Below are positions 31,857 through 64,000 of a stretch of DNA of 64,000 nucleotides, piece by piece. Position numbers and translations under genes: made by a program. Position 1 is the first letter of the stretch; every line of letters begins with the position of its first letter. The notes beneath the pieces were generated by a model. It was given only the letters and a program-made list of their open reading frames with translations. It had not been told where the DNA came from and did not search any database. Source of the stretch: an uncultured Bacillota bacterium (GTDB lineage: Bacteria > Bacillota_I > Bacilli_A > RF39 > UBA660); assembly GCA_900317975.1 (NCBI GenBank), contig ONIZ01000001.1, forward strand, positions 135,479-199,478, given 5' to 3'.

Positions 31857-32123
31857 AATAACAAATAATCAAAATAAATAATAAAATAAAAGCAACGATA
31901 TGAAAGGGGTATTATACTTCTAGTGAGAAGTGATTGATATTCTATAAAATTATTTATATTATATCAGATACCCTTTATCGTATTTTAATTTTTCACTGGA
32001 AGGAAATTTTAATACGTATAAGAAAGTCGAATAAAAATCAATTTTTGAGGCAGAAAAATTGGGTATGATTTTTTGAAGACTAAATGCATATGTTGACCGA
32101 GAAGATGTCCAATAATTATATGC

Positions 32124-32849: not shown

Positions 32850-32872
32850 AAAATATATAGATGATTTAGATT

Positions 32873-33586: not shown

Positions 33587-33630
33587 GAATAAACATAAAA
33601 ATATTAAAAAATAAATAATATATATAAATT

Positions 33631-44600: not shown

Positions 44601-47226
44601 CTATAATATTATTATTTGGACCATGTATAGCATACATATCTCCATTAGCACTAAAATTAGGTAAATAAAAGTTTTTATCAGCAGTTGTTGCTTGAGAATA
44701 TATATTTGTATAATGATTATTTGTACTATATAATCTTATATTACCTCTTGCATTATGTGCACCACCATCAGTTGTGTTTGTTCTATCAACAAATGATATA
44801 TTATTTCCTAATTCAAGTGTTGCAATACCTATAGCTCCATTTGTGCCTGGAGTAACAATATTATTATCATCATCTAATACATTTACAGTTGTTTTTGTAC
44901 CAAGTTGCTGAATATAAAACTTGGCATATTTTGAATTGTAGGAATACAAATGAAATCCGTATTGTCCTCCTAAGGCATTGGTGTTAAGACCTTGAGGAAT
45001 ATTTATTAATACTGAAGTAGCTCCTTCAATATGACTACTTGAATATAAGACATTATCAGAGACAAGTCTTGGGCGTATAGTTCTATTATTATATATAAGT
45101 GTTCCAATGGAATTTCCTGTAACACCAGTAAATGTAATTCTTCCAGCAGAATCATTTATTAATCTTGCAGAATAATTACCTTTATTTACATTATTATATA
45201 GAAAATCAATATATGGAGTTACATATGATAGTTCAATTCTACCAGTTCCAATATATGTTCCCTGTACAGCACCATTTGTAGTAATTTCTCCAGTAGTAGC
45301 ATTTCCAGTAACATTAAATCCGGTACTGCCAACTAATATTCCAGTACTATAATAAGAAAATGACCATCTATTAGCTGACGTTCCTAATGTATAAGCATCA
45401 TTTACTGCAGGATATACATTTCCTTTTATACTCCAATGATTAGATATATTACTAATAAAAGCATCTCCATTATTAGAACCATTTTTTGTTATAAATAAAT
45501 TACCATTATTATTTCCAATAAACCAACTTGTTGTCGAAGTTCCAATATTGCCTATATTATCATTACCACATAAAAGTATTGTTGCCCAATTATTAATCAT
45601 ATGTAAACGGATTCCTTGATTATAATTATTTGCTTGAGCTGTTGGAAATATATTTAATGAACCGTTATTTGTAAAATATGCTATTTTTTTAGCTCCAGTA
45701 GCAGTATAGAAATAAAATTGATCTAAATCATCCGTACCTACAGACCAATTCTTATTATTATTTGATGAATAATTAATACATGCATAAGGTTTATTTGTAT
45801 CTACAGACTTAATACCTAATATATCTCCATTACCATTTATTTGTAATTTTTTAATATTAGGATTCCATGTCAAATAACTATGCGTTTTATATAATTGATT
45901 ACTTTGTGCATTATTAGTGTTTGCTTCATTAGACCACACTATTGGATAATTGGTATTTAATGAATAACTATTAGTTACAATAACATTGGTTACATTATCT
46001 GCTGTTCCTTTTAGCCAGCCTTGAAAATAAGTAGCATATGCTGTAGCAGTTGCTGGATTAACTGTAATACCTGAATTTCTACCAACATAATTAGCAGTAT
46101 TATTTGGAGATTCTGAATATGTAAATAATAATTGATATGTTGATTTATTTCCTGTTCTTTCATATTGAATGACCTTTTCATCAGTATTGGCATCTGTAAC
46201 TGTATCCCAAACAAATTTACTTCCATCATATTTAAGATATGTATTAGAAGATGGCGCATCAATAAATTTAGTTATATTAGGGGCTGATTGGTAAGCTATC
46301 TTATTTGCATCACCACCAGCTATATTTGTAGCTTTACTTGCAGTAGTAGCAGTGTTTGCACTATTTGCACTATTTGCATGATTAGCACTATTAGCATTAT
46401 TTGCATTAATAGCATAAGGTACAGTTACATTAGAACTTTTTATTGTATAATTACCAATTTGAATATATGAATAAACACTATTGCCTGATATCCCAATATA
46501 AGATGTTTGTAATAAATTACTGGCATGAAATCCATCTAACTTATCAGCATTATCAGCATTAGTAGCATGATTAGCATTATTTGCATCAGTAGCATAAGGT
46601 ACAGTTACATTAGAACTTTTTATTCCTGCTCCATTACCAATTTTAACATATGAATAAATACTATTACCTGATACACCAATATAAGATGTTTGTAATAAAT
46701 TACTGGCATGAAATCCATCTAACTTATCAGCATTATCAGCATTAGTAGCATAATTAGCGCTATTTGCATTACCAGCATAAGGTACAGTTATATTAGAACT
46801 TTTTATTGTCTTATTACCAATTTGAATATATGAATAAACATTATTGCCTGACACACCAATATAAGATGTTTGTAATAAAGTATTGGCATGAAATCCATCT
46901 ACTGTATCAGCATCAGTAGCATAAGGTACAGTTATATTACTACTCCTTCCTGCCCCATTGCCAATTTGAACATATGAATAAATATTATTACCTGACACGC
47001 CAATATAAGATGTTTGTAATAAAGTATTGGCGTGAAATCCATCTAACTTATCCGCATTATCAGCATTAATAGCAAACAATGCTTGATTAGCAGTATTAGC
47101 ACTATTGGCACTATTTACATTTAGTAAACTTTCTTTTTTATAACCTCCTCCTCCTAACAAAACATAGGAATTATTTGCACCTCCCGGTATACCACCATGA
47201 TAAGAACCATCTTTGAATTTTCCCAT
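38629..47226 (-). CDS. giant tail fibre (2865 aa) with a C-terminal S74 intramolecular chaperone autoproteolysis domain
   Basis: The last approximately 103 aa are SDKKLKKNIKPISDEF ... TGFIAQELSYVIPEAV ... KKISYLETLI, the endosialidase-chaperone signature (about 38632..38940). There are four N-terminal repeats and several internal large duplications. Confidence 0.85.
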   Translation of the reverse strand: MGKFKDGSYHGGIPGGANNSYVLLGGGGYKKESLLNVNSANSANTANQALFAINADNADKLDGFHANTLLQTSYIGVSGNNIYSYVQIGNGAGRSSNITVPYATDADTVDGFHANTLLQTSYIGVSGNNVYSYIQIGNKTIKSSNITVPYAGNANSANYATNADNADKLDGFHASNLLQTSYIGVSGNSIYSYVKIGNGAGIKSSNVTVPYATDANNANHATNADNADKLDGFHASNLLQTSYIGISGNSVYSYIQIGNYTIKSSNVTVPYAINANNANSANHANSANSANTATTASKATNIAGGDANKIAYQSAPNITKFIDAPSSNTYLKYDGSKFVWDTVTDANTDEKVIQYERTGNKSTYQLLFTYSESPNNTANYVGRNSGITVNPATATAYATYFQGWLKGTADNVTNVIVTNSYSLNTNYPIVWSNEANTNNAQSNQLYKTHSYLTWNPNIKKLQINGNGDILGIKSVDTNKPYACINYSSNNNKNWSVGTDDLDQFYFYTATGAKKIAYFTNNGSLNIFPTAQANNYNQGIRLHMINNWATILLCGNDNIGNIGTSTTSWFIGNNNGNLFITKNGSNNGDAFISNISNHWSIKGNVYPAVNDAYTLGTSANRWSFSYYSTGILVGSTGFNVTGNATTGEITTNGAVQGTYIGTGRIELSYVTPYIDFLYNNVNKGNYSARLINDSAGRITFTGVTGNSIGTLIYNNRTIRPRLVSDNVLYSSSHIEGATSVLINIPQGLNTNALGGQYGFHLYSYNSKYAKFYIQQLGTKTTVNVLDDDNNIVTPGTNGAIGIATLELGNNISFVDRTNTTDGGAHNARGNIRLYSTNNHYTNIYSQATTADKNFYLPNFSANGDMYAIHGPNNNIIGATNRPIYVAENGRATQISYIINSTINNSASANRIAFYSAVNAISPGTGIFTNGSTININGTAVPAQSGKFQVQGLSVFQNITAQTNDAYTIGLTNFRFKSGFFTTSLLVGATNYTATNSAAKGTFINIGSIELSHDTPYIDFHYAYTGLDFSARIINNYKGRLTITGATNTNHDDYEYASRTIKPRLYIDGTTFSPNTFETSSWFLSNMGTVNTSGFVVYGKNNQYGKMTISVLGTASTASKKGTVGEGLLELGNNIVNVETANVSNDNTPVQNGFNNARGVLRLYGTTANYTNVIQYNVGYNKTFYLPSFNADMYAVHAGNNNALGNAFTPIYLSPYGRVAQCTAYAGGTNVTLNGAAKSGTTIIAYAPIVSGTVGQILKSEGPNKAPTWITPTDNNTWRNITVNGTAWKGTATDTGAMNVKNGTSITVSSSNNDLTISHNTLFSGTKASGFYKISYDTQGHIMGSTNVTASDITGLSPYGAEKGITLASNKFGHTNNITAGTAAGSATATLSFGGTFTIPTITYDANGHITSWSTRTMTMPSDSNTDTKVIQTSTTYNYAMPILVRKTANGTSGTADTTYYNTNVKINPATATAYATCFQGALKGNADTATKLGTANKGSATKGIYLAAGVPTEMTYELKSGVATGTATYLTYYKTLNSIEKIPSLWMDETILNGTFKGDLTGTSTFAKYLIYGNGYDGGAGVTNPYHLMAEAKIENNTSTRNITATFLVSGYYERARGILYVQARVESGASTINTSTTHAKWIVKDLHLTPDDFILTTKVTANSLICKLYYKVPAKWYHARIRLLDSGSWAAHSDNWNLFTSSSNTVDNTYIFTTIPADETQFVSEDVTTSLNATNATNVIVNHNITSNTNYPIVWANTRTQTTSTANQLYKSFDYFTWNPGSKTLAVVGITNTNYLGVSYTNLGTTNEGLLTFTPNKVAINFRPGNANYNSKIEYMTNGNEALVFANKNAITSFIFKCGNDLTDSSNWYSSAIEVPTVQMKKQSLYVNTAIDTGTTPSYNLYVTGTSHVEGTSYALSVGDNHTVVYPNAHYFKGPNSGSGAIAIKLPITGYKQATMMKFTVEIYNYVTSRSSTYHINGYVYTDGLWKNTSVYSLRDDLNDYGNLTVRFGHDSGGTRNIVWIGETNTAWSYVRVWLKDIHVGHGGDDYDKWNNGWEIGLETTLSGTVEITKENPAVNYNAANATNATKLSLYEDRYSTTDINKTTLGDGSIISFKVTSSTTSNKPLSDGHILHFNWDNNAGWDAQLFLPTSANASGRMMQIRGQSSGTWGVWKTVFDNYNSITPAINNTYNIGSSTLKWKNVYAYTGIFGGNATQWPIQITRAYNDSVNFRIGSAATSGNESLDMRISNNTSGGGDEVYIDLVNAGQGVSINPKLGVGIRVPAETLDVNGNSYIRGALYLDTQYHKTSYGIHFYNRAYNTWIEYMSNKDKSPGGAAHPAGTVVTSWAMRSIIENAAGYGWIWESSANAAGSAISNMMELSSNTGNLWVKGSITAPSFLGTATTATKLGTASVGNSVQPIYLSSGVPTVTKLYSVVYNSTAAADDYYKIADINLTGTNYRWIKLHVSCGRQSTISGILYVQCNSSSNQYAASAIKFHALSSGLPLDNFKLLYFNGSDSVTFEVWAKLTGRYNSLAFKFIDGGSWGGNGYNYFNLYSSTSAGATALPTTTTIGSNTVNLTGTLNCTLDALASSATSATNAVNATNATNATNATNISGGAKNQLLYQTGAGATGFITAPAKNDANSSYMLSYTAGTFAWIPPKVKQWQTTGNYNYPMLFKYTTATATITDETRFCSSIKANPSTGTITANYFNGLASEADQIYIITASSSTQYYLLGSTSQGSSSGTILSIYAGAPYFKGNDVYSASDKKLKKNIKPISDEFINNIFSSYSNIVKEFDWISSNKHATGFIAQELSYVIPEAVDYSYESYTYSVNYNSALSKLVGALIEKVKEQDKKISYLETLIYGNNR
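46411..47064 (-). repeat. four tandem coding repeats of 48 to 61 aa at the fibre N-terminus
   Basis: NADKLDGFHA(N/S)(T/N)LLQTSYIG(V/I)SGNxxYSY(V/I)(Q/K)IGN ... SSN(I/V)TVPYA occurs four times. The repeats are obvious at DNA level too. Confidence 0.85.
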
Positions 47227-48584: not shown

Positions 48585-48618
48585 CAGAAAAGAAGAAGCT
48601 AGTCTTCTTCTTTTTCTG
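48585..48618. terminator. bidirectional stem-loop that overlaps the stop of the minus-strand gene
   Basis: cagaaaagaagaag pairs with cttcttctttttctg, with one bulge. Loop is ctagt. Confidence 0.5.
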
Positions 48619-49225
48619 TGTCTATAAATACAAAATCTAGATTTGAATATTTTATTTCTACTTTGAATGTTTGTGATTGTGCTAATGGAACATTATAGTT
48701 AAGATCTAGCATATCTATACCATTTATTACAGGATCATATACAATTATTTTTGAGTATATTTCTCCAATATTGTTGAATATATTTATAGATATCTGATCA
48801 GGCATTTCTTTATATTCTGTATCTCTTGAATATTGATAGAAGAAGTTTTCAAACATCAAGAAATAGTTCACATACCCAAGTGTATGCCTGAATATGATGT
48901 TCAATGTCTTGTCAATTAAAGCTATAGGGTTCTTTTCTGCTCTATATGTGTATTCTGAAGATGTATGCATGAATTGATTTGGCTTCTTTCTCCATTCTTT
49001 TCTAATAGGCTCTCCAGTACCAGTCTGTTGCTGTTGTACTGTTCCTTCATTAAACCCTAATATTTGCACTGATTGAATGGTCTCATTAAGAAAATCAATA
49101 GGTCTATATAGATAACTTTTGTTCTTACTAATGATCTTACTATACTTTTCATTCAATTCTGGTGCTATGAAATTATCTGGTAACTTCAATTCAAAAAGAT
49201 CTTGTCTTCCGGGTAATGTAAACAT
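48599..49225 (-). CDS. hypothetical tail-associated protein (immediately downstream of the tape-measure-like gene)
   Basis: 208-aa ORF, assigned by position only. Confidence 0.5.
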   Translation of the reverse strand: MFTLPGRQDLFELKLPDNFIAPELNEKYSKIISKNKSYLYRPIDFLNETIQSVQILGFNEGTVQQQQTGTGEPIRKEWRKKPNQFMHTSSEYTYRAEKNPIALIDKTLNIIFRHTLGYVNYFLMFENFFYQYSRDTEYKEMPDQISINIFNNIGEIYSKIIVYDPVINGIDMLDLNYNVPLAQSQTFKVEIKYSNLDFVFIDTEKEED

Positions 49226-49257: not shown

Positions 49258-52200
49258 TTAGTGTTTGCCCTGGCCATTTGCTTTATTTTTAATATTGTAC
49301 TTATTTGCATCTTGTGCTTGTTTCGCGCTATCAGGGGTTGTTCCACCTTGTCCGTTTGGGTTATTTGGAGGAACTACCTTAATTGGATTACCTGGTGTGC
49401 TTCCTCCTGTATCTCCTCCTTCATCTCCATTATCAGGGTTTGGTGTATCATCAGGTGCTTGTGATTTGACCACAATATTCAATGGTTGCTGTATAAGTGT
49501 TTGAACATTCTTGATAGCTTCTGTAATCTTGCTATGACGACGGATTTGGATTTCATCTGCCTTATTAATTGTTTCTTTAGATTCTTCAAGTCTATTTGCA
49601 AGTTCATTCAATACATAACTTAATCTATTAGCTAATGCATCTGTCAAATTATCTAAGTTACCCATCTTCTTAGCAAGTTCATTCAATTCTCTTACTAATT
49701 GAGTTAAAGCATTTGTTCTTCGAAGATCTATACTATTTATAGTCTTTACATATTTTGCTAATAGATCAGTATTTGCTTTGAATGTATTAGTGCTCTTTTG
49801 ACTAGACATTGAACTGTATATTTGTTCAATTGATATTCTCAATGTAGATGCATTCATCAATGCCATTGGATTGAATCTAATTACAGTATCAATATATTTT
49901 CCTAATGATTCACTAACAATATCTAGATTTGTCTTGCCCCATGATGTCTCTATATCTATGTCAAATACCTTTGCTAAATTTGTTAAGTTTTGTTGTAATG
50001 CAGATATAATGGTTGGTTCTATTTTCTTAGAATTTTCCATTGTTACCACTATTTGGTCAATTGCTGCTTTAAAATTATTTATAGAGTCAATTGTATTTTT
50101 ATTGACCGATAACTTAATACCAGTCAACAATGTATTTAATGTAGCATTAACAGTATTAATATCTATCAATACATTCTTTAATAATGAATTATCTGCCTCC
50201 CATGTTCTAAATAATGTCAATATTGGATCATAGAATTTTTCTAATATGTCAGTTATGATATTGGTTCCCTTTTTATTATCTTTAATGTAATTAATCTTTG
50301 CCAAATCAATCTTCCCAGTATAAGAATCAATTATTTCTGCAGATATATCAATTATTTCTTGTACAGTATCAGCAACATCTTGTAAAGAATTGACTATTAT
50401 TTGATTGCTTTCTTCATTTTGCTTACGAACATTTTCATTATATAGTTGTTTAATTGTTTGATCTGCTGATTGTCCAGATATAAGATCTTGTAGTTTTACA
50501 AATGAAATGAAAATATCATGTATATCAGCAAATAGTCCTATTGTAGATTCAATATTTGCTTTTGATTGTTGTTTATATTTGAATAACTGAGATATAACAT
50601 CTGTATTTTCAAGTATTGGTTTGAAACTATTGATGACTGACTTTATTGTTGTTGTTATTTCAGTAATTGCTGACTGTATTTGAGCAGATGTATTTATAAG
50701 ATTCTTTAATGTGACATCATCAATTGCTATTGCCTTTTCATTCTTTGCGGTATCTTCATCAAATATTGTCAATAGACTTGATATTATGTGTCTTGCTTTT
50801 GATTTTGCTTGTGTTATTTGATCTTCTTTAAATGAAATATATCCTTTAGCATTTCCATCTTTGTCATAGCCATTAGCAATCTTCATTTCTGCTATTTCTT
50901 TTAATGTGTTTGCAGATTTTTTGATGATTTTGTTGATTGAATCATTTACATGAAGTATGCCTGGTAATTTTTGATCAATTTGTTGCTTTTGTAAAGTATC
51001 GTATGATGATATTAAGCTTTTTCCTATAGAAGTTATCATATCAGGAATTGTTTTCTTAATATTGTCAATAACAGTTTTGATATTTATCTTTTCATATTCT
51101 ATGACTTGGCCCTGATCATTTATTTTCTTAGGTATTTGGGCTGTTCCAATCTTTACAACAGAATCAACAATATTTGCAACTATTTTAGTAATACCAGATA
51201 TTGAAGAAACAGCTTGACCAAATAATGAGTCTTTACCTTCTTTGAACAAATGCGGGTTCTTTTCTACAACACCTATTAATGTAGTTGATACTGAAGTAAC
51301 TATTTGTTTTATTGTTGTTGATAAAGCTGTTTGTATTTCAGTCATATTAAGTTTTTCCCATTTATCTGGTTGACCAGTCTTAGGATCATAATGAGATGGA
51401 ACTAATGCATTAGCAATCTTTACAATTGCATCGGTAGTATTACTTACAATCTTAGATATACCACTAACAGAATCAACAACTTCCTTAAGATTACCTGTTG
51501 GTTGATTATCAGCAGTAAATAAGAATTGCTTATATGGATTTTTACTAAATGTATCTACTAATGCTTTTCCGATACCAATTGCAATTGCAGCAACATTAAT
51601 AGCAGCATTTTTGTAATCATCCTCTTTCATTTCTCTGAATTCAATTGGCTTACCTGTCTTAGGATCCCATTTATAAGGTATTTGATTATTTGCTAACTTT
51701 ATTATTCCATCAGCCATTCCTGAAACAAGTTCATTAACTGGCATAATAGATTCTAATACAGTCTTCATTGTACCATCAGTAAATCTTTCATCACCAGCAT
51801 ATTTTACTAATGAATCTAATATGCTTGTAATGATAGAACCAATAGCTTCTCCTGATGCTCTAAAATCTTCCGGTGTTACATCAACATAACTAATTGGATG
51901 TCCTTTATCATCCCAATCATTAGGAACTTGTAGTTTTGCTATATCTTTTATTCCCTTACCGACATTTGCTATTAGTTCAGATACTTTGAATGATGTTTCT
52001 ACAACTGTTCCTATTTTTGAATTTTTCTTTCCTATTCCAAATACACCATCATTACCATCAAATAATGAGCCTACTGTTATGCCATCTTCTCCATCAATTG
52101 GTTTATAATATAGGTTAGCTAATGAAGAAATAACTGCAGTCAATATATTTCCTACGCTTTTGCCCATATCATTAAAATCATTACTATTTAATGTTTTATA

Positions 52201-55200
52201 TTCAGTTGGGTGTCCCTTATCATCCCAATCTATAGGAATTTGTAGTTTTGCAATATCTTTGATGCCTTGTCCAACATTTCCAATTAATTCAGAAATTCTA
52301 AATGACAAATCAATAACTTGAGATATCTTTGATTTTGTAGCACCTAATCCAAATAATCCATTAGAATCTCCAGCAAGTAAATTATCCCATTCTGCTTTTG
52401 ATATACCTGAATTATTATCATTCAAAAATTCACCACTGGCAATCTTTCCTAATGTAGTAAACATTGTTGTGAGTACTGTTGTAATGTTTGTTCCTGCATC
52501 AGTAAAATCTTTTTTCCTTAATTGTCTAAATGATATTGGTTTTCCTTGATCATTCCATTCAATAGGTATTTGTAGTTGAGCAATATTTCCAACAGCTTCA
52601 CCAACAGAACTTATTACTTTACTAACCTTCATTGACAAATTCATTATTCTAGATAATGGATCTTCACCAATCAATCCTAATACAAATGAATTTGCAAAAC
52701 TAAATCCAGAACCTTCTAATTCAGTATAAACCTTATTAAGTTCTTTAACCATTGTTGTCAATATTGTTCCAACATGCTGACCAGCTAAATCAAAATCAGT
52801 TTCTCGTAATTGTCTATATCTAACAATATTTCCTTTTTCATCCCATTCAGCTGGGATTTGAAGTTTTGCTATTTCATAAATTGATTTTCCAACTGTTCCT
52901 GTGATATATGCTATCTTTCTTGATATTGACATTAAGTAAAGAAGTTTCATTTCCATCTTACCTGCACCAACAACTTTACCAATTGCTTTTCCAATCCAAT
53001 TATTACCAACAGCATTAGCAATTTCGCTATCTGATGGCATTGAGACTTTATTTGGAATATTCATGAAGTTTTCAATATTTGAAGATATTGTATCTATTCC
53101 AGATTTTAGATCAATGTTTTGTATTGACTTAACTGCTTCTGCCATCATTGAGACAGTATCTGTTATTCCTCTTATAGTTCTTCTAATAGGTATTACACTA
53201 AATGCGGTTGCTACAGCAATAGGAGCAATTTTAGATATTCCTTCAAACAATTTGAGCATTGAACCAGCCTTAGGATCTTTATTTGTAACAGTCAAAGACA
53301 ATTTATTGATACTATCTGTTATAGTATTTCCATGTTTCTTCATGATGTCATTAACATAAGCAATAGAACTACCATAGATGAACAGTATTTCACCCATAGC
53401 TATTAATGTAGCTCCACCTGCCGCAACTGGAATACCGATTAATGGATTTGCTACAAGTGAACCAATTGCCCAGAAGAATGCCCCATAAGCTCCAACAGAA
53501 GCAACAAATAAAGCCATGTTAGCAAAAAATTCTCCAAAACTTATTTCATTGAAAAGACTATTTAGATAGAATAATGAACTGCCATATATTGCAAGAGTGA
53601 GACTCATAAGAATAAGTATACCATTAGCAAGTAGCATATCTGTTTTGTCTATGCCTTTAGCTGCTAATGACATTAATTTAAGTGTACCAACCATTATAAG
53701 TTCCATAAGGCCAACCTTAGCAACCGTATCAAATCCTATTTTCATTTGATCAATCAACCAAACTACTCCGCTAAATACTCCTAATGATAGACTTATTTCG
53801 CCAATTATTATTGATGCTTCTCTAACTTCCTTTTCTTTTAATGATATCTTAGATTTTCCTGTTAACAACTCATAGAATTTACCTAAAGCAAACATTAATG
53901 CTGTCATGACTGCAACTTTTACAAGAACCAATGCTTCTGTAGGATCCTCAAATGGGAACATCTCATCAATAGCTTTTACAACACCAGCAAATATAAGTAA
54001 TGATCCAGATATGAGAGCTAATGTTTTTGCTCCTTCTTGTACATCCTTCTGGTGTTCATCAAGTGTCTTCATTATAGCTATTATTGACCATGTAAATCCT
54101 GCTAATAAAGCAGCATAGCCACCAACAACTAATGGTCCATATTGACTCATAAATGTCGCACCACTTAAGATGATGAAATGCATAGCACCAACAAATAGCA
54201 TGAATCCCATAAGTCCTGATCCCTTGGTTGCTGAAGTAAGAGATCCCGCTATGCCACCTTTACTTATTCCCATTACAGATAAAGTCTTGATTGCCTGAAT
54301 AGCAGCAATTGGAATTAGCATCATATCAACAAAGGCAGTAATAAGACCAGCATAAAGAATTGCAGATCCCCAGGCATTAGCAGTCTTCATATATGCTGTA
54401 CCTGTCAATAGAATACCATGCATTACTGCAACAAACAAGGAGAATGGTTTAAGACTATCTAAAGCCCTTTTATCAAAACCATCTGTTATTCTTTTAGAAG
54501 CTAATCCCATACCAGCAATAAATCCATCAAATACTGCCGCGTATTCAGCACCAGCTAGTACTCCGTATTTCTTTGTAAACAATATACCTGTTGTCAATAT
54601 ACCATGCATTGTTGCTAAGAATATTGAGAACGGTTTGAGACTATCTAATGTTTTCTTGTTAAATAATTCAATAATTGTTTCGGATACTTTACCCATGTAT
54701 TTAATGAATCCTAACAATACAGTAGCATATTCAATAGCAGCCAATGCTCCAAATTTCTTTATGAATGTTGCCCCCATTACTAAGCATCCTGTACAAACAG
54801 CAAGGAATAGACTAAATTGCTCCATTTGAGCTGCAGTAGAAGATTTAAGTAATGAATTGATTGGCTTTGTTGCAGCAATAACACCAACAATAAATAATGC
54901 TAATAGTTTTGTATAGTCTAAAGCATATTTTGCCATCATGCCGTTCTTCATTGACATAAACAATGACCCTACTAATAGGCATGTTGTAGTGGTGAACATA
55001 AATAATGCAAATGTCTTTAATGATGCTAATGCCGTTCCCTTTACAAGATTAAACAATAAGAATGGAGCAATTACACCAGCTTCAAATAGCATCAATAATC
55101 CTGTAAATTCTAATGCCGCTTTAACATATTTGCCTCCCTTCAATTCCATGAACAAAGCACCAACTAGTAAAATGATTGTACAAGATACAATTACAGAATT

Positions 55201-57555
55201 AAATGCTTTAAGACCACTGAATATTTGTCCATTGATCATGCTAAATAATAAGAACGGAGCAACTACTAATGCTTCAAATGTCATTAACAATAGACCAAAT
55301 GCTAATGCATTGACAACAAATTTACCACCACCCATTTCTATGAATAATGCACCAATTGAAAGTACTATAGTACAAACTATTATTAATGAGGTAAATTCAG
55401 TTATTGATCTATCTACACCATCTGAATACTGAGAATATAGAATGAATGGAGCAATGACTAATGCCTCAAATGCCATTAATACTAAGCCAAATTTCAAAGC
55501 ATTTTCAACCATCTTACCATTACTCATACTCATAAACAAAGCACCAACCAATAAGATAGTTGTACATGTTATAAGGAATGAGTTGAAATCTCTTAATGTT
55601 GGGAACAACTTATTTGCTTCATTTTTGAATATCATGAATGGTAATACTACTAATGCTTCAAATATCATTAGAACAACACCAAACTTCAATGCATTCTTGA
55701 CAAGTGCTCCATTACTTAATCCCATGAACAAAGCACCAATGAGCATTACCATTGTACAAGTAACAACAAATGAATTTAGATCTTTTAGTCCCTTTATTGC
55801 ATCTGAACTGTATTTCTTAAACAATAATATTGGGGCAATTATTAATGATTCAAATACGGCTAATGTTACGCCAAACAATAATGCATTTTCAACAAACTTA
55901 CCACCACCCATCATCATAAATAATGCACCAATTGACATTACAATAGTAGAAGTTATCATGAATGAGTTAAGTCCTTCTATTGTTACCAATGATTCTTTGA
56001 TTTCCTTTTGATGATTATTTACATCTACAGCAGTTTCAACAATTGTATGATTAACATTTTTGATTTTTTGTGCAGCTGCTTCCGCTTGATCTGCTGACTG
56101 CCCAAGAACACTTATCTTTTGAATCATTTCATTGAACAAATCAATATTTTCTTTCAATGATTTGACATTTTCTTTGTCAAAATCAAAGAATGTTTGAATA
56201 ATGTTCATGAAATTCGTCAACGCTTTAACAGTTTTCTTGTCATCACTTAACTTAACTAATTTCAAAAGACTATCAAGTGCATCATCATTTAATCCTGATA
56301 TAATAAGTTCAACTTGCATCTTTTGATCAGGTAATTTGTTCTTAAGAAGTGACTTATTTGCCTTTATTAGATCTCCAATACTTGTCTTTAGATCATTAAC
56401 AATTGTCTTAAATTCAGGATCAACATTAGTTGTAACTGTATTAGGAATTAGTTCATCAAACTTTAAAGTCTTTAGATTCTCTAAATTGTCATTTAATGTT
56501 GATAAATTAGCTGAAATATTAGATAAAAAGTTTAAACCAACAAGTGAGTCATTATACATTTTTAATTTATCAATAAATGTTGTTATTGTTTGAATATAAC
56601 TATCATATGCCGGTTGAACTAACTTATCTAATAATGTCTGATTATTAATATTAATTTTCTCAATTAAGCTTTCTGATATTGTTTTATTTATATCATTTAA
56701 TGATTTTATAATATTATTAATAATATTTTGATCAATAACAGCTGATTTATTAGTTTCATCATTATTTATCGGTTTTATATTATTGAATTGATTAAAAAAC
56801 TTTGACAAATTAAATGAACTTAAAGCTGTACATAATGTATCTATCTTATTATTAATATCATTTAATTTTTGTTCACTATTTTTAAATAAATCTTTAATAT
56901 CTAATACTTTTAGTAATTGATTAATTCCTTGAATATGTTTATCACTGATTGTAGTTAAACCGTCAATACTATTCTTTAATGTATCAATATGTGTTATAAT
57001 TTCTGGGTCTATTATACCTGTTGATACATTAGAAGATACATCTGGCTGTTCTAACTTTTTATTTAATATTTGTTCAAATTGAGTATAATTACTTGCTATA
57101 GCATTAAGACTATTAACTAAATTACTATTTAATGCTTGTATTGATTCGGTATTTGTACTCATTAGTTTACCAAATTCTACAAATGATGTATTAATAAACT
57201 TATCTAATGATGAATCAATACTATTTACAGCTGATTTAATAGTCTTTCCATCATCCTTTGAACCAATAGCATCTTTAATCTCATCTAATAAAGAATATAT
57301 AGAATTATTATTTCCTAATATTGAAGTTCCACCCGCCTTCTGCTTTGATTTGTTTCCTAAATCTGTTGGGTTCTTAACCTGATCATCACCAACATAGAAA
57401 CTAGCCATTGTTTTACTAATTCCTTCTGATAAGTTTTGAAGAAGATCTTTTATTGTTGCTTCTACACCAGGTATAGCTCCAGCTTTTATAATTTCTTCTG
57501 GATTTCCCGCTCTTTTATTTCCAAATCTTGAAGTATTATTTTCTTTCTTGGCCAT
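49258..57555 (-). CDS. giant tape-measure-like protein (2765 aa): N-terminal coiled coil, a long multi-helix hydrophobic array, eight soluble repeats, and a basic G/P-rich tail
   Basis: Assigned from its size, extended heptad-like low-complexity sequence, internal tandem repeats and tail-module context. Confidence 0.65.
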   Translation of the reverse strand: MAKKENNTSRFGNKRAGNPEEIIKAGAIPGVEATIKDLLQNLSEGISKTMASFYVGDDQVKNPTDLGNKSKQKAGGTSILGNNNSIYSLLDEIKDAIGSKDDGKTIKSAVNSIDSSLDKFINTSFVEFGKLMSTNTESIQALNSNLVNSLNAIASNYTQFEQILNKKLEQPDVSSNVSTGIIDPEIITHIDTLKNSIDGLTTISDKHIQGINQLLKVLDIKDLFKNSEQKLNDINNKIDTLCTALSSFNLSKFFNQFNNIKPINNDETNKSAVIDQNIINNIIKSLNDINKTISESLIEKININNQTLLDKLVQPAYDSYIQTITTFIDKLKMYNDSLVGLNFLSNISANLSTLNDNLENLKTLKFDELIPNTVTTNVDPEFKTIVNDLKTSIGDLIKANKSLLKNKLPDQKMQVELIISGLNDDALDSLLKLVKLSDDKKTVKALTNFMNIIQTFFDFDKENVKSLKENIDLFNEMIQKISVLGQSADQAEAAAQKIKNVNHTIVETAVDVNNHQKEIKESLVTIEGLNSFMITSTIVMSIGALFMMMGGGKFVENALLFGVTLAVFESLIIAPILLFKKYSSDAIKGLKDLNSFVVTCTMVMLIGALFMGLSNGALVKNALKFGVVLMIFEALVVLPFMIFKNEANKLFPTLRDFNSFLITCTTILLVGALFMSMSNGKMVENALKFGLVLMAFEALVIAPFILYSQYSDGVDRSITEFTSLIIVCTIVLSIGALFIEMGGGKFVVNALAFGLLLMTFEALVVAPFLLFSMINGQIFSGLKAFNSVIVSCTIILLVGALFMELKGGKYVKAALEFTGLLMLFEAGVIAPFLLFNLVKGTALASLKTFALFMFTTTTCLLVGSLFMSMKNGMMAKYALDYTKLLALFIVGVIAATKPINSLLKSSTAAQMEQFSLFLAVCTGCLVMGATFIKKFGALAAIEYATVLLGFIKYMGKVSETIIELFNKKTLDSLKPFSIFLATMHGILTTGILFTKKYGVLAGAEYAAVFDGFIAGMGLASKRITDGFDKRALDSLKPFSLFVAVMHGILLTGTAYMKTANAWGSAILYAGLITAFVDMMLIPIAAIQAIKTLSVMGISKGGIAGSLTSATKGSGLMGFMLFVGAMHFIILSGATFMSQYGPLVVGGYAALLAGFTWSIIAIMKTLDEHQKDVQEGAKTLALISGSLLIFAGVVKAIDEMFPFEDPTEALVLVKVAVMTALMFALGKFYELLTGKSKISLKEKEVREASIIIGEISLSLGVFSGVVWLIDQMKIGFDTVAKVGLMELIMVGTLKLMSLAAKGIDKTDMLLANGILILMSLTLAIYGSSLFYLNSLFNEISFGEFFANMALFVASVGAYGAFFWAIGSLVANPLIGIPVAAGGATLIAMGEILFIYGSSIAYVNDIMKKHGNTITDSINKLSLTVTNKDPKAGSMLKLFEGISKIAPIAVATAFSVIPIRRTIRGITDTVSMMAEAVKSIQNIDLKSGIDTISSNIENFMNIPNKVSMPSDSEIANAVGNNWIGKAIGKVVGAGKMEMKLLYLMSISRKIAYITGTVGKSIYEIAKLQIPAEWDEKGNIVRYRQLRETDFDLAGQHVGTILTTMVKELNKVYTELEGSGFSFANSFVLGLIGEDPLSRIMNLSMKVSKVISSVGEAVGNIAQLQIPIEWNDQGKPISFRQLRKKDFTDAGTNITTVLTTMFTTLGKIASGEFLNDNNSGISKAEWDNLLAGDSNGLFGLGATKSKISQVIDLSFRISELIGNVGQGIKDIAKLQIPIDWDDKGHPTEYKTLNSNDFNDMGKSVGNILTAVISSLANLYYKPIDGEDGITVGSLFDGNDGVFGIGKKNSKIGTVVETSFKVSELIANVGKGIKDIAKLQVPNDWDDKGHPISYVDVTPEDFRASGEAIGSIITSILDSLVKYAGDERFTDGTMKTVLESIMPVNELVSGMADGIIKLANNQIPYKWDPKTGKPIEFREMKEDDYKNAAINVAAIAIGIGKALVDTFSKNPYKQFLFTADNQPTGNLKEVVDSVSGISKIVSNTTDAIVKIANALVPSHYDPKTGQPDKWEKLNMTEIQTALSTTIKQIVTSVSTTLIGVVEKNPHLFKEGKDSLFGQAVSSISGITKIVANIVDSVVKIGTAQIPKKINDQGQVIEYEKINIKTVIDNIKKTIPDMITSIGKSLISSYDTLQKQQIDQKLPGILHVNDSINKIIKKSANTLKEIAEMKIANGYDKDGNAKGYISFKEDQITQAKSKARHIISSLLTIFDEDTAKNEKAIAIDDVTLKNLINTSAQIQSAITEITTTIKSVINSFKPILENTDVISQLFKYKQQSKANIESTIGLFADIHDIFISFVKLQDLISGQSADQTIKQLYNENVRKQNEESNQIIVNSLQDVADTVQEIIDISAEIIDSYTGKIDLAKINYIKDNKKGTNIITDILEKFYDPILTLFRTWEADNSLLKNVLIDINTVNATLNTLLTGIKLSVNKNTIDSINNFKAAIDQIVVTMENSKKIEPTIISALQQNLTNLAKVFDIDIETSWGKTNLDIVSESLGKYIDTVIRFNPMALMNASTLRISIEQIYSSMSSQKSTNTFKANTDLLAKYVKTINSIDLRRTNALTQLVRELNELAKKMGNLDNLTDALANRLSYVLNELANRLEESKETINKADEIQIRRHSKITEAIKNVQTLIQQPLNIVVKSQAPDDTPNPDNGDEGGDTGGSTPGNPIKVVPPNNPNGQGGTTPDSAKQAQDANKYNIKNKANGQGKH
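50761..52953 (-). repeat. eight tandem coding repeats of 82 to 110 aa
   Basis: Anchor IAKLQIPxxWDxKGxPxxYxxLxxxDF occurs at about aa 1565, 1661, 1771 and 1875. Degenerate copies occur at 1957, 2051, 2140 and 2225. Confidence 0.75.
54046..55971 (-). repeat. about ten tandem coding copies of a 62 to 65-aa two-helix hydrophobic hairpin module
   Basis: Modules start at aa 529, 593, 657, 721, 785, 849, 914, 976 and 1038, with a less regular copy at 1117. Example: LNSFxxTxTxVMxIGALFMxxxxGKxVENALKFGxVLMxFEALVxAPFxLF. Confidence 0.8.
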
Positions 57556-59233: not shown

Positions 59234-62200
59234 TTAGAATTCACTTTCAGCTTCTTGTATTTTAGTTGTAAAATTAGACCATGATGGATGATTCTTATAA
59301 ACTTCTTCACACCCAGGTTCCACATATATTTTTTGAATATGTTCTGATATTTCTATTGAACCATTATATATTGTATTACCATCTGATTCAACTGCTTGTG
59401 GTGGTACTTTTGCTCTAATACGTATAGTTTTTAATTTATCATTATAAGTTAAACCGGAATAATAATAAATTTTTTCTATGTTTGATCCTAATGTTAGTCT
59501 TTCTAGATCTGGCATATTCCATATTGCATTATGTCCAATATATTTTACATGATTGCCAGTATCAAGAAATGGTAATTTAGCAACAGAACAGAAAATATGA
59601 TCAGCAAAATCTTCAACTGTATTTGGAATAGCTGTATTTGCGCATCCACGAACCATAGTATTCTTTAAATATACATGATTACCATATACAAGATGTTCTT
59701 TATTTAAATCATCATTAGTCAATATAATAGCATTACAATTACCCCTTGAATCAAACCATTCATTGTCAGGATGAACTTTAAATGTCGTTATCATCGATGC
59801 GCTTTCGGCAAATGCAATATTTATTTTTGAAACTGTTGAAGAAATATATATTTCACACCCATTTGGATTACTAATTCCATTAAATGTGCTATTATTAATT
59901 TCTTGTATATTTGTTCCGATAATTATTTTTCTAATATTTTGTTGTGTAACTTTATAAGTAATAGCATCTTGATCATTTGATCTTGAATCTTTAATATTAT
60001 TTCCAAATAAATTACTAGAACTAATTTTGTTTAATTGTTGAGATTGCCCAGATTGTGGATTAATATATATTTCTTTTATTTCTCCATCAATTTCTGCATA
60101 TATTCGTGTTTCTGGAATCTCTTCCCAATATTCATCTTCAATAGGAATAAAATAATCTTTTTCAATTTCTTTATCATCTAATACTGGATATAGATTGTCT
60201 TCATATTCTTTGTTTATTCTAAAGTTTCCTATTGTTCTATATTCATAGTTATTCAATCCATCAATAGTATAGTTCAATAATACATTATAGTATCCTTTAG
60301 TATACATATTATTGTAGTTATTATTTTGAATAATCATAATATTTGGATTAGCATTTACCTTAGTAATGTTCTGTAGATCATTTATATGCTTTATCTCCCA
60401 TTTTTCATGAAGATCAATATTGAACAATTGGTTGTCATTAGTCAAAGTAACAATAACTAGATCATCATCATTGAAGTGATTCATACCATTTGCTTTGATA
60501 ATGTCCATTCTATTTACTAAAGGTTTCTCAAGACTAAATCCGCTATATTTGATTGAATAGTTTGTATATGTATATTCTGATTGATGTATCTTCAGTTCTT
60601 CTTCAGTATTATAATATACAGGATATCTAGAAATAAGTACTATATACCAATATGTAGGGTGTTTTAAGTCACCAGGTTTTAATGCACCTTCTAAATTTCT
60701 ATTATGCTCATCAATATCATTTTTAGTATAATATATTGGTTCTATTTTCCAATCATCTATAGTCTTTTCATATGCATCATCTCCTTCTTGGGCATTATCA
60801 ATTTCTTCTTGAGTATAATGTTCACCATCTACTTTAATTGTTCCATATTGTAATGCACCAGAAAGTTTAAGATTATTTTCATTTATTTCTATAATATTAT
60901 ATTCTTCATATTCATCATGCATTAGATAAGCATCATAGTCAGGAATCTCATTTATCTGTATAGCAAACTCATATGAATGCAATTCTGGGAATAGTAATGT
61001 ATAAAGTTCAATGTTCTTTGGATTATTATCATATTCAAGTTTCACATCATCTTTATACAGCTCAAATATATGGATCTTGTTATAGTATTTCTTATTATAA
61101 GGTATTGTTATCTTTCCTCTATAATATTGACTATAGAACTCTCTCATTAACTGTTTGTCATATAATTCTTGAAGTTCTTGTCTTTTCTGTTCTATTTCTT
61201 CTGTTTCAATAGATAAGTTATCAATTTCCTTTTGTGTCTCTTCAATTGATGCATCATATATTGTCTTAAGTTTTTCTAAGAATGACAATACCTTTTTGTT
61301 CTGACCATCTACTTCAATCATAAGATTATTTGTTTCATCATTTTTGTCTATTAAGAACAGACTATTGATAGATACTAGATCAGGTTGATACATAAATGAA
61401 TTGAAATGTATGTCATTACCATTTATTGATAATATTTGCTTAAACATTGTCTTATTGTCTTTCAAGAAATACCTGTAATAAAGTTTACCGAATTCCAGAT
61501 AGATATTAGGCTTCTTTACAGTAAATACATATTCAAACCATTTGTTGTTTACAAGCATATTGATCTTAAACTCACATTTTAACCAGTCAATATTTTTCTT
61601 GAACAGTCTTGGTACTAATATGAGATTTCTATAATATTCATTAATGTTTTGATAGAAATTGAATTTGTCATCATCAATAAGAATACCATAGTCAATAGCA
61701 TAGAGATTTGAATCACTTATAAACTTAAGTTGTCCATCATATATAATATAGTTATTTGAACTGTCTTCTAATCCAAACTTATTATATAACTTATCAACAT
61801 ATATGTAGTTATCATCAATCAATGCATATTTTCTATAGTTGTTTGTGGCAAGTAATGAATCAATATCAGCATAGACTCCATATTTGTCAACATATTCTTG
61901 CAATACTTCTTTATATGGTCTTCTATATGTATATGATAGTATAAGATAACAACGGAAATAATATGAGCTAATGTCTACATATCTATTAGATGCATTTAGA
62001 CGTGTTGGCTCATCGTATTTTGATAATTTGTAATGAGTAGCATATTCTGGTAATGTCTCTCTATATTCATCATTTTCATCTTTACCCAGATATTGAAGAG
62101 GCTTGAGATGAACACTATCAATTAGTATATATTCTCCCTTGTCATATTGTGTATATCTTGAGTCTACTTTGATGATCTTTATTGGAATAGTTATACAATT

Positions 62201-64000
62201 TTCATTCACATAGTATAAGTCTTCAAAGTCATAATTGTTATTATAATTGCTAAATTCATTGAACTTTGAATCTATAAGATGAGTTGTCTTATAATAGAGT
62301 AATTCATTTGATTCTGGAAATTCAACAATAACATCATCATTAGATATATATACATTTGAAGGTGTTTCTTTAGTAAATGCAAATGAAGACATCTTTATGT
62401 CATTAGCATATACTTTTCTTTCTATAGATGCTCTATTTATCTTTACATGTACAGGAAGGAAATATGTCTGATAGTAATAAGCTAAACAGTCAAGTTTTAA
62501 TGCTAATTCACGGAATATGAAGTCATAATAAGGCTTATAGAAAGTAAGATGTTCATGTTGTACTTCTTCAACTTTATCAAATAAGTTTTCAAGATATGGA
62601 TTTCCTTCACCAACAAAGTCAGCATTCCAGTTTTGAAAATTATATATTCCTGTCTCCATATTCTCTTTCAAAGACAAGGACACCATATTTGATTCATTGA
62701 AGAATCTATAAGTATATTTTAAGTCATTGTCTATTGTGAAATAGTCTAATATGTATTGGTCTTGAAAGTCGTTATCAGTCTTCAATAGTTTACTTATTTC
62801 TATTTTGTCACCCCATCCGAACCAATATAGAGACTTAAGCATTGAATTGAAATTACCGCATTCTCCTCTTATGCCCATATAGTTCAAAAGAAGTTCTTTC
62901 ATCTTGTCTTTCAATAGTTTCTCATCAACTGTCTTGTTGTATATTGATGATTGATAGAATGCTTTCACAATGTCTTTAGGGAAACGGAATCCCATGTTTT
63001 GTCCATTGATAATCAATTCTTCACATTCATCTACAAATGTTCCTCCAATAGTTATAGGTGTATATTCTGTTGCAAGTTTGAATACTGGTCTGTCTTCATC
63101 TACCCCATCCTCTGTAACAGTTACCTTACTACTTAAATCAAACCAAATATCTCTTACATCAGTTTTTTCTTCTGCATTTGGACGTATATTTAAAGATATT
63201 GCTTCATCAATAGTTAATGTTCTATCTGGTTTTAAACGTTTATCAACATATCTGTATTGTTGTTCTTGGTCATCATAGCCATAGCATTCAACCCATTGCG
63301 CTTCATGCTCTTCATCAGTTTCTTTTTCAAATTTAGTAATAATATCATCTGTATTACCATGTGTTCTTTTATAATCCAGATAATCACTTATATATTTACC
63401 ATCATGGTTAAATCCTATTTCACTTTCACAATAACAACAATGTTGATATAAATGACACTTAAAACGATATATTTTATCTTTACTTAGATATTCACCTTCC
63501 TTAAATTTAAATATAACATGGAAAGATTCTTCCGGATATCCAGGTTTTCTGGGTAGGTTAAAACCAAATTTTTTCTTAAAGTTTCTTTGTCTTGTTATTT
63601 CAGTTCCTTCAAAAAATTGGTTATTACTATGAGGAGTAATGATTTCTACTTCAACTACATCACCATCATATTCAACATTTTCTCCTATTTTATATTCTGG
63701 ATAGATTGTCTTCACCAAAGTTTCTGTTGGCCCATTAACTTCAAATATCTCTATTTTGTCAAATGTCTGTTTCAAAAGATCATCATAATATTCTTCCTTA
63801 GATGCCGTTATTGTCTTTGTCTTTGGGGTATTGTCAGGGTTTACATCTTGAACATTTGTAGAATAATTGCACTTTATCATTATATTAGACAAGAATGTGC
63901 CTTCAAACTTACTATACCCAACAACATAGAATGGGAACATTATATATTTCTTGTCCTCATTATATACTATAAGACTATTGTCAATATTTTGTATATCAAA
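59234..64000 (-). CDS. very large tail or baseplate-associated protein with a C-terminal BspA-type LRR_5 domain. It may continue beyond the right window edge.
   Basis: The first Met is at 63940, but the frame stays open through 64000 (FDIQNIDNSLIVYNEDKKYI precedes it). The C-terminus has the LRR_5 signature IIIGTNIQEINNSTFNG ... YIGHNAIWNMPDLERLTLGSNIEKI. Confidence 0.7.
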   Translation of the reverse strand, partial: FDIQNIDNSLIVYNEDKKYIMFPFYVVGYSKFEGTFLSNIMIKCNYSTNVQDVNPDNTPKTKTITASKEEYYDDLLKQTFDKIEIFEVNGPTETLVKTIYPEYKIGENVEYDGDVVEVEIITPHSNNQFFEGTEITRQRNFKKKFGFNLPRKPGYPEESFHVIFKFKEGEYLSKDKIYRFKCHLYQHCCYCESEIGFNHDGKYISDYLDYKRTHGNTDDIITKFEKETDEEHEAQWVECYGYDDQEQQYRYVDKRLKPDRTLTIDEAISLNIRPNAEEKTDVRDIWFDLSSKVTVTEDGVDEDRPVFKLATEYTPITIGGTFVDECEELIINGQNMGFRFPKDIVKAFYQSSIYNKTVDEKLLKDKMKELLLNYMGIRGECGNFNSMLKSLYWFGWGDKIEISKLLKTDNDFQDQYILDYFTIDNDLKYTYRFFNESNMVSLSLKENMETGIYNFQNWNADFVGEGNPYLENLFDKVEEVQHEHLTFYKPYYDFIFRELALKLDCLAYYYQTYFLPVHVKINRASIERKVYANDIKMSSFAFTKETPSNVYISNDDVIVEFPESNELLYYKTTHLIDSKFNEFSNYNNNYDFEDLYYVNENCITIPIKIIKVDSRYTQYDKGEYILIDSVHLKPLQYLGKDENDEYRETLPEYATHYKLSKYDEPTRLNASNRYVDISSYYFRCYLILSYTYRRPYKEVLQEYVDKYGVYADIDSLLATNNYRKYALIDDNYIYVDKLYNKFGLEDSSNNYIIYDGQLKFISDSNLYAIDYGILIDDDKFNFYQNINEYYRNLILVPRLFKKNIDWLKCEFKINMLVNNKWFEYVFTVKKPNIYLEFGKLYYRYFLKDNKTMFKQILSINGNDIHFNSFMYQPDLVSINSLFLIDKNDETNNLMIEVDGQNKKVLSFLEKLKTIYDASIEETQKEIDNLSIETEEIEQKRQELQELYDKQLMREFYSQYYRGKITIPYNKKYYNKIHIFELYKDDVKLEYDNNPKNIELYTLLFPELHSYEFAIQINEIPDYDAYLMHDEYEEYNIIEINENNLKLSGALQYGTIKVDGEHYTQEEIDNAQEGDDAYEKTIDDWKIEPIYYTKNDIDEHNRNLEGALKPGDLKHPTYWYIVLISRYPVYYNTEEELKIHQSEYTYTNYSIKYSGFSLEKPLVNRMDIIKANGMNHFNDDDLVIVTLTNDNQLFNIDLHEKWEIKHINDLQNITKVNANPNIMIIQNNNYNNMYTKGYYNVLLNYTIDGLNNYEYRTIGNFRINKEYEDNLYPVLDDKEIEKDYFIPIEDEYWEEIPETRIYAEIDGEIKEIYINPQSGQSQQLNKISSSNLFGNNIKDSRSNDQDAITYKVTQQNIRKIIIGTNIQEINNSTFNGISNPNGCEIYISSTVSKINIAFAESASMITTFKVHPDNEWFDSRGNCNAIILTNDDLNKEHLVYGNHVYLKNTMVRGCANTAIPNTVEDFADHIFCSVAKLPFLDTGNHVKYIGHNAIWNMPDLERLTLGSNIEKIYYYSGLTYNDKLKTIRIRAKVPPQAVESDGNTIYNGSIEISEHIQKIYVEPGCEEVYKNHPSWSNFTTKIQEAESEF

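Follow-up and report, generated by a model that had tools for sequence, protein, structure and literature searches.

The window analysed here is a stretch of 64,000 nucleotides (nt) deposited as part of an uncultured Bacillota bacterium (contig ONIZ01000001.1, positions 135,479 to 199,478). It carries on its minus strand, at 49258..57555, one intact ATG-started open reading frame (ORF) of 2765 amino acids (aa), and the question that this locus raises is what purpose is served by a protein of such length with a long, regular run of hydrophobic helical hairpins at its centre. The window is clearly phage DNA, with genes for T4 gp2-like and gp4-like (head-completion) proteins, an endolysin, tail-fibre-like proteins and a fibre with an S74 chaperone. 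The identical 2765-aa protein is also found on contigs that reach 410,268 bp, and orthologues are 90% and 70% identical to it. It is considered likely that the protein is the tail-length ruler, or tape measure protein (TMP), of an uncultivated phage of about 410 kb, and its hydrophobic modules would later form hairpins in the host membrane; the phage itself probably has a contractile tail and is related to the jumbo myovirus group that includes PAU, PTm1 and MA9V-1. The identification as a TMP is based on a tail-tube-fold partner gene, homologues in cultured phages, the sheath-module context of those homologues, the fit of their lengths to measured tails, a domain order like that of T4 gp29, modular variation in length and the phage context. 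The layout of the gene and its partner, with the basis of each assignment, is as follows.

49258..57555, minus strand: whole gene, probable tail tape measure protein (single ORF, 2765 aa; orthologues; family of 786 clusters)
55972..57555, minus strand: N-terminal soluble region, mostly helical or coiled-coil-like, with a basic start MAKKENN..., aa 1-528 (composition, heptad periodicity)
54820..55971, minus strand: six canonical 64-aa hydrophobic helical-hairpin modules, aa 529-912 (64-aa register, Hidden Markov Model (HMM), lag identity)
53176..54819, minus strand: diverged continuation of the hairpin array, about 8 further helix pairs with a spacing of 62-70 aa, aa 913-1460 (hydropathy peaks; family module HMM matches at aa 917, 1041 and 1121)
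50710..52947, minus strand: eight soluble repeats of about 85 aa with the motif IAKLQIPxxWDxKGxP, aa 1537-2282 (repeat HMM; DSSP of a low-confidence AlphaFold2 (AF2) model)
49486..50709, minus strand: all-helical C-terminal region, aa 2283-2690 (DSSP of a low-confidence AF2 model; heptad periodicity z = 5.4)
49471..49800, minus strand: best-conserved family block, aa ~2586-2695 (consensus and invariant columns in family alignments A2 and A4)
49261..49485, minus strand: G/P/N-rich tail, probably disordered, with a Lys-rich end, aa 2691-2765 (composition; AF2 without secondary structure here)
48599..49225, minus strand: 208-aa tail-tube-fold partner gene, 32 nt downstream of the giant gene (AF2 model and Foldseek)

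When the protein is laid out in 64-aa steps from aa 529, six module copies fall into exact register (aa 529, 593, 657, 721, 785 and 849), with the consensus FNSF..TCT..LL.GALFM.M..GK.V.NAL.FG..LM.FEALVIAPF.LF. Self-identity at a lag of 64 aa is 23.4% as compared to 7-11% at the neighbouring lags, and the hydropathy autocorrelation has its maximum at the same lag. When an HMM is derived from the six copies, each copy matches it at 1e-28 to 2e-35, a circular result as the same sequences built the model; this HMM also finds all six modules in the 70%-identical orthologue P0003. The copies are mutually 44-55% identical at the amino acid level and 56-69% at the nucleotide level, except for the sixth, which is more diverged, and Tandem Repeats Finder detected no DNA repeat; the modules are old duplications and not an assembly artefact. 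Further recognisable copies follow at about aa 913, 976 and 1038 with a spacing of 62-63 aa, after which hydrophobic helix pairs continue to about aa 1457. The family module HMM finds 9 modules in the 2765-aa protein, and hydropathy suggests about 14 hairpins in total. Transmembrane (TM)-like helices were counted as 19-aa windows with a Kyte-Doolittle mean of at least 1.6; between aa 529 and 1457 there are 24 such non-overlapping windows. Central hydrophobic or TM segments, as are found in TMPs, are thus present, in a number well above the approximately 1 to 6 TM segments of known TMPs.

Conservation within the module was assessed from 941 module instances, whose source proteins are otherwise only about 20-25% identical. 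Module position 13, in helix 1, is Gly in 86% of the instances and this helix keeps small residues, while helix 2 keeps an F..L..F face that is 83-91% conserved. On their linker side the hairpins are flanked by Lys residues: K/R accounts for 53-81% at family module positions 1, 58, 61 and 62. With its strict length and conserved helix-packing residues, the module looks more like a defined unit that spans a bilayer than like a free spacer.

The remainder of the protein is long and predicted to be predominantly alpha-helical, with probable coiled-coil stretches, as is typical of TMPs: heptad periodicity reaches z = 5.4-8.5 across the N-terminal, repeat and C-terminal regions, and DSSP assigns nearly all of the AF2 model to helix, except for short beta-hairpins. 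This model, of aa 1633-2765 and built from 8 sequences, has a pLDDT of 38.8 and was used for secondary structure only. In the N-terminal region, aa 100-528 are poor in Pro and Gly and show a heptad periodicity of z = 5.4 against shuffles, which fits a coiled coil; the length of this region varies within the family, the first hydrophobic helix beginning anywhere from aa 1 to aa 1034. The eight soluble repeats, spaced 81-110 aa apart, each match the family repeat HMM with E-values of 1e-21 to 1e-30 and are predicted by the AF2 model to consist of a helix of about 27 aa, a beta-hairpin and a second helix of about 27 aa. Searches of PDB with the repeat profile and the C-terminal alignment, at the sequence and profile level, returned only designed coiled coils and coiled coils of viral fusion proteins, which are read as heptad similarity and not homology. 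The conserved C-terminal block has the consensus YVKTINSID..LT.LV..LN.LA..MGNLD.LT.ALA..LS.VL..L...L.E.K.TI..A..IQ..R and is presumed to be the docking site for a conserved tail partner. The terminal segment (aa 2691-2765) contains 13% Pro and 15% Gly, and by comparison with T4 gp29 it appears to be positioned like the C-terminal loop of that protein that binds the distal tube.

The sequence-only reading of this DNA had described the six modules spaced by 64 aa, more diverged copies with hydrophobic sequence up to about aa 1460 and the eight soluble repeats, all of which were recovered in the present analysis (register at aa 529-849, lag-64 identity and retention in P0003 for the first; hydropathy to about aa 1457 for the second; every repeat at E <= 1e-21 within aa 1537-2282 for the third). 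Its estimate of more than 25 helices is about right if the weaker partner helices are added to the 24 strong windows, and its N-terminal coiled coil of about 525 aa is compatible with the composition and periodicity given above. The tail that it called basic and G/P-rich is indeed G/P-rich, but its net charge is -1 and only the last ~20 residues are basic.

The protein belongs to a large family. An exhaustive HMMER search with the C-terminal 1133 aa identified 786 clusters (at 50% identity) with E <= 1e-3, including 344 at E <= 1e-30; a word-indexed search with the protein returned seven relatives only, and one with the repeat profile gave no matches. The members, mostly 1800-3727 aa long, share a defining layout of a 61-64-aa hairpin array followed by helix/beta-hairpin/helix repeats and then the conserved C-terminal block. 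Among 156 members analysed locally, the number of strongly hydrophobic windows has a median of 18 and a maximum of 28, and 128 of the 149 scorable members have a hydropathy period of 61-64 aa. The distance from one module start to the next is also 61-64 aa in 85% of cases. Members have 1 to 16 soluble repeats, and total length correlates best with this number (r = 0.66), which is what a ruler evolving by gain and loss of repeats should show; these amphipathic repeats are regarded as the main length-adjusting module of the family. The family contigs are 380-473 kb long, have about 30% GC and originate from ruminant and other gut metagenomes, some being deposited as bacterial metagenome-assembled genomes (MAGs). 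Three contigs that carry the gene pair, L011 (CADBGE010000001.1, 400,076 bp), L001 (379,936 bp) and L008 (473,479 bp), are deposited as MAGs under the names uncultured Erysipelotrichaceae, Clostridia bacterium and Ruminococcus sp. and probably represent genomes of megaphages that were binned as bacterial. The cultured relatives described below infect Bacteroidota and Sphingomonas, and the bacterial MAG labels are therefore weak evidence of the host.

The 208-aa gene downstream of the giant gene is much better conserved than the giant protein itself, with at least 702 homologues and identities of 50-91%. Sequence methods found nothing for its product. Its AF2 model (pLDDT 67) matched, with Foldseek, PDB chains of the T4 neck-tail and baseplate-tube structures, the KP1 baseplate cup, Hcp, the AFP/PVC tube and T4 gp19, and BFVD entries that include a 'Tail tube protein' (E 6.6e-17), gp3-type tail completion proteins, gp19 and tube initiators. 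On the basis of this model the neighbour is assigned as a tail-tube-fold protein. The tube-fold gene lies directly downstream of the giant gene in eight of ten loci (the window, L001, L003, L004, L008, L009, L010 (partial) and L011), sometimes after a 57-aa ORF. In T4 the gene order is 29-48-54, the tube-fold genes 48 and 54 following gene 29, and in siphophages the TMP gene is followed by Dit; the order observed here appears to parallel both. TMP genes usually have tube, chaperone or baseplate-hub genes as neighbours in a tail module, and the pairing in eight of ten loci, together with the proximity of the homologues to the sheath gene in PAU and PTm1, agrees with such a position.

Searches of GenBank phages by tblastn and megablast with the gene and its region gave no match, and homologues in cultured phages surfaced only through locally built HMMs. 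The tube-fold protein has weak tblastn matches in the Tenacibaculum phages PTm1, PTm5 and pT24. About 96% of the PTm1 genome, comprising 116 ORFs, was scanned with HMMs built from the family, and ORF-028 ranked at the top of the 116 with two independent models, one of the soluble repeat and the other of the C-terminal block; the latter, built from 164 family instances, also matches pT24 gp118. Alignment of ORF-028 to the family with hhalign gave a probability of 75% (E 2.5e-5). The end of ORF-027 overlaps the start of ORF-028 by ATGA, and it is ORF-027 that encodes the helical N-region together with the majority of the hydrophobic helices. A tblastn search from ORF-028 led to homologues consisting of a single ORF in pT24 (BPT24_118, 925 aa), PAU (gp97, 1096 aa) and MA9V-1 (MA9V1_009, 1082 aa). 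MA9V1_009 aligned to the megaphage profile with an hhalign probability of 95.9% (E 5e-9) and a local HMM E-value of 5.7e-22, and PAU gp97 reached a local HMM E-value of 1.7e-10; the soluble-repeat region is the source of the homology to the MA9V-1, PAU and PTm1 proteins.

The cultured homologues share a common layout of a helical N-region, TM-like helices (8 in PTm1 and 10-14 in the others), 1-2 soluble repeats and a helical C-region. MA9V1_009 contains 14 TM-like windows, at a period of about 60 aa, besides two soluble repeats, and a periodic hairpin array is present in both the MA9V-1 and the PAU proteins (hydropathy lag 58-61 aa); the megaphage module HMM gave no score on the hairpins of the cultured-phage homologues. 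In PAU and PTm1 the tail sheath gene and this gene are on one strand, the latter 4-6 kb downstream. All these proteins are annotated as 'hypothetical protein', apart from PTm1 ORF-028, whose GenBank name 'ubiquitin-like proteins' looks wrong. The PTm1 homologue (L013, 27670-30320) is divided into 391 + 492 aa at a place where pT24, PAU and MA9V-1 have a single ORF of 925-1096 aa; the division may be genuine or may reflect a frameshift or a sequencing error. Another PTm1 gene, ORF-242, located upstream of the PTm1 tube-fold gene, was considered as a TMP candidate and rejected, having neither TM segments nor a family HMM match, and in the scanned portion of the genome no further ORF of at least 200 aa qualified as TMP-like by hydrophobic segments or a family HMM match.

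Tail length could be compared with protein length for two of the cultured phages. The tail lengths listed below for PTm1 and MA9V-1 were taken from a table in a review and from a single negative-stain figure, and neck and baseplate may be counted in them; the unrelated TMP of phage G is listed as well.

PTm1: 883 aa (391 + 492), tail 150 nm, 1.70 Å per residue
MA9V-1: 1082 aa, tail ~170 nm, 1.57 Å per residue
Phage G, unrelated TMP: 2893 aa, tail 450 nm, 1.56 Å per residue

A ruler sets tail length at about 1.5 Å per residue; for this family the relation was observed on the cultured homologues of PTm1 and MA9V-1 only. Both values lie within the normal TMP range and fit an extended helix better than a protein with every hairpin folded back, which would predict a tail of about 113-128 nm for MA9V-1. 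An arrangement with one folded-back hairpin per tube ring of about 4 nm, giving a tail of about 250 nm for the window phage, was set aside as less probable, since the cultured relatives fit the extended ruler better. By analogy, the simplest expectation for 2765 aa is a tail of about 415-470 nm at 1.5-1.7 Å per residue, and since gp183 of phage G uses 2893 aa for 450 nm, a ruler of this size is not unprecedented. The sequence-only reading had held that a tape measure of such length would specify an extremely long tail or that some of the protein has another task. Such a length has a precedent in phage G, and in the cultured relatives the whole protein, including the hydrophobic region, fits 1.5-1.7 Å per residue. 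Its term 'tape-measure-like' is supported by the tube-fold pairing, the cultured homologues and the T4 gp29 domain order, though not by a match to a known TMP family.

Judging from what is known of TMPs, a few copies (3-6) of the protein would lie mostly extended inside the tail tube during assembly and thereby set its length, with the C-terminal block and the G/P-rich tail anchored at the baseplate or tube-initiator end and the basic N-terminus near the neck. After adsorption, the protein would be expelled from the tube and, by analogy with T4 gp29 and TP901-1, the 61-64-aa modules would fold into hairpins and insert from outside into the cytoplasmic membrane of the host. The part of a hairpin that would have to cross is no more than its short tip of about 10 aa, while the Lys-flanked linkers would stay on the entry side, and the hairpins would form or anchor a channel for the very long genome. 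It is from this analogy that we infer membrane insertion after ejection. The idea of a conduit, which had been put forward from the sequence, is in keeping with what is known or proposed for the TM segments of the T4 and TP901-1 TMPs.

Several observations weigh against this interpretation. Pfam and PHROG scans gave no TMP family match for the window protein or four distant homologues, and Pfam likewise gave none for 15 of the longest members (the few Pfam/PHROG matches of P0033 contain zero qualifying stretches and lie within repetitive N-terminal sequence), and the family therefore falls outside every described TMP sequence family; there was also no match of family members to a PDB chain. 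The tube-fold pairing is broken in two of the ten loci (L007 and L012) and in PTm1, no tail-assembly chaperone pair was found upstream, and the gene's immediate neighbours in the megaphages are partly structural and partly metabolic (dUTPase, IMPDH, NUDIX, helicase). The window covers 64 kb of a genome of about 410 kb, and another TMP candidate elsewhere in it is possible. The clustering of Lys on the linker side is the expectation for an ordinary co-translationally inserted membrane protein under the positive-inside rule, and the origin of the two tail lengths, noted above, also counts here. As regards the chaperones, we know of no T4-type myovirus that has the G/GT pair. Some of these observations would be accounted for by an integral membrane protein of the infected cell, inserted co-translationally with its large soluble ends in the cytoplasm, which would act as a scaffold for assembly or replication or in superinfection exclusion and would not be a virion component: with the linkers cytoplasmic the Lys residues obey the positive-inside rule, up to 28 TM-like helices are present, TMP family matches are lacking and the neighbours are partly metabolic. 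Such a protein is, however, very improbable here, as length tracks tail length and the gene occupies a tail-module position in cultured relatives, a tube-fold partner accompanies it, and the presumed C-terminal docking block and the probably disordered tail resemble the termini of the T4 TMP. A pilot or 'ejectosome' protein that travels in the head or the tail and is expelled to build an envelope-spanning conduit, like T7 gp15/gp16, with an ordinary TMP encoded elsewhere in the 410-kb genome, would also explain the lack of a TMP family match, and would agree with a huge hydrophobic content that is unusual for a lumen protein and, in the 64 kb seen, with a local gene context that is not that of a classic tail module. 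This explanation is improbable in view of the homologue lengths that fit the measured tails of two cultured phages, the tube-fold pairing, the location of the homologues in the sheath module of PAU and PTm1 and the outcome of the PTm1 scan, in which no other TMP-like ORF appeared.

A different alternative accepts the protein as a TMP and restricts the hydrophobic modules to assembly, where they would serve in chaperone binding, in lumen packing or as a duplicable spacer and would never enter a membrane. Chaperone binding was the role proposed by the authors of the TP901-1 study, in which removing the second hydrophobic region had little effect, and the expansion of all parts of the protein in megaphages fits the growth of a simple spacer. 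The 61-64-aa spacing, the small residues and Gly of helix 1 and the F..L..F face of helix 2 are, however, kept across the 941 module instances, and the T4 TM segment is placed at an open membrane channel, so that a role in assembly only, while a serious alternative, is considered unlikely. The interpretation as a ruler whose modules later enter the host membrane is thus retained as the likely one. An extension of it, which is regarded as a long shot, is that 3-6 chains with about 14 hairpins each would bring about 80-170 membrane-spanning helices per virion into a large ordered membrane assembly, such as a wide portal, a protein-lined patch or a compartment, that admits the genome of about 400 kb, the 61-64-aa module being the unit of spontaneous hairpin insertion from outside. 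If true, entry by a hairpin assembly would be a mode of membrane crossing that has not been described for any phage.

The passage of very large phage genomes through the cytoplasmic membrane is a standing question, and the role of TMP TM segments has been visualised only recently, in T4. The present family is an extreme and highly regular version of this TMP feature and is widespread, with at least 786 clusters at 50% identity. Short members exist in cultivable phages (MA9V-1, PTm1, pT24 and PAU), which makes the question accessible to genetics and to cryo-electron microscopy and also lessens the strangeness of the giant protein. The analysis further supplies an annotation for many 'hypothetical' giant proteins and for their tube-fold partner, and the tails predicted for the megaphage clade would be roughly 270-560 nm long or more.

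Other features of the window and the related loci were also noted. At 26858-28021 on the plus strand, adjacent genes for a T4 gp4-like head-completion protein (phrog_218, E 2e-38) and a gp2-like DNA-end-protector protein (phrog_429, E 3e-16) tie the megaphage, through this sequence similarity, to the T4-type head and neck machinery; the eight ORFs that follow (28059-34029, plus strand) have no matches and may encode neck or baseplate proteins. A second giant ORF (38629-47226, minus strand, 2865 aa) ends in a Peptidase_S74 intramolecular chaperone (aa 2763-2818, E 8e-7), has no Pfam, PHROG or PDB match over its remainder and is probably a very long tail fibre or spike. A third (59234-63940, minus strand, 1568 aa), upstream of the 2765-aa gene, has no Pfam, PHROG or PDB sequence match and no similarity to the PTm1 tail sheath, and has no counterpart in locus L001/L002. 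Upstream of the giant gene, the window has four small neighbouring ORFs, encoded on the opposite strand and without informative PHROG matches; in relatives the upstream gene is usually a dUTPase. Two slightly overlapping plus-strand ORFs (7398-8102 and 8086-8676; 234 and 196 aa) both match the thymidylate synthase phrog_160 and adjoin dNMP kinase-like and thymidylate kinase-like genes; judged by these matches, the pair could be a duplicated or split pyrimidine-modifying enzyme and a hint of modified DNA.

A conserved ORF of 56-58 aa lies between the giant and the tube-fold genes in L001 (17162-17332), L003 (16742-16915) and L008 (9826-9999) and stays with the tube-fold gene in L007 (9802-9978), where the giant gene is absent; the window is without it, the gap being 32 nt. 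In L012, a relative deposited as an Erysipelotrichales MAG, a tube-fold protein (10001-12514, plus strand) with no giant gene upstream carries a C-terminal extension of about 630 aa with four Ig-like repeats (LSFD...YYS.D.SIA.VN..TGK..L). Such an extension is unexpected on a tube protein covered by a sheath, and this paralogue may be exposed, for example at the baseplate or neck.

According to a recent study, the N-terminal part of T4 gp29 is a coiled coil that adjoins the DNA end; one TM segment and a helical bundle domain come next, and the C-terminal loop is bound at the distal tube. For the state after contraction, the study places the TM segment at the open channel of the tube tip. The protein described here has the same domain order, its TM and helical portions being multiplied, and the gene of gp29, the lumen ruler of a contractile tail, likewise precedes tube-fold genes, but gp29 has 590 aa and one TM segment (aa 207-246) as against 2765 aa, about 14 hairpins and 8 soluble repeats, and PDB profile searches revealed no sequence similarity between them. 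The TMP of the Lactococcus phage TP901-1 likewise has several predicted TM helices, and internal repeats whose removal shortens the tail; it differs in belonging to a siphovirus, with 6 TM helices in two irregular groups of three, aromatic repeats of 11/18 aa and no regular 64-aa hairpin module. Its first group of helices is essential, and the authors of that study could not show a membrane role or choose between this and chaperone binding. The Bacillus phage G protein gp183 is a megaphage TMP of nearly equal length (2893 aa) serving a contractile tail of 450 nm, and is distinguished by a lysin domain and a classic frameshifted chaperone pair upstream. It was rejected as a relative, showing no homology and no 19-aa window with a Kyte-Doolittle value of at least 1.6, and the hairpin array is therefore not a general property of long rulers. 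Sle1 of Streptomyces, a TMP-related effector of a contractile injection system, shares an N-terminal coiled coil, a predicted TM helical hairpin, a location as tube-lumen cargo and a proposed move to the membrane after ejection, but is a small protein with a single hairpin and not a phage ruler. MA9V1_009, PAU gp97, pT24 BPT24_118 and PTm1 ORF-027/028 are true homologues with the same architecture at a smaller scale (883-1096 aa, 8-14 TM-like helices, 1-2 soluble repeats, the PTm1 gene being split). The earlier statement that no such arrangement is found in characterised TMPs thus holds for T4, TP901-1 and phage G, while unannotated homologues with 10-14 TM-like helices do exist among GenBank phages. 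TMPs with TM segments, with internal repeats and with lengths near 2900 aa were already known, and the hairpin run described here is far longer and more regular than that of any studied ruler protein. What is new is a large, unannotated TMP-like family with 7 to about 14 hairpins of a conserved 60-64-aa period and a helix/beta-hairpin/helix repeat.

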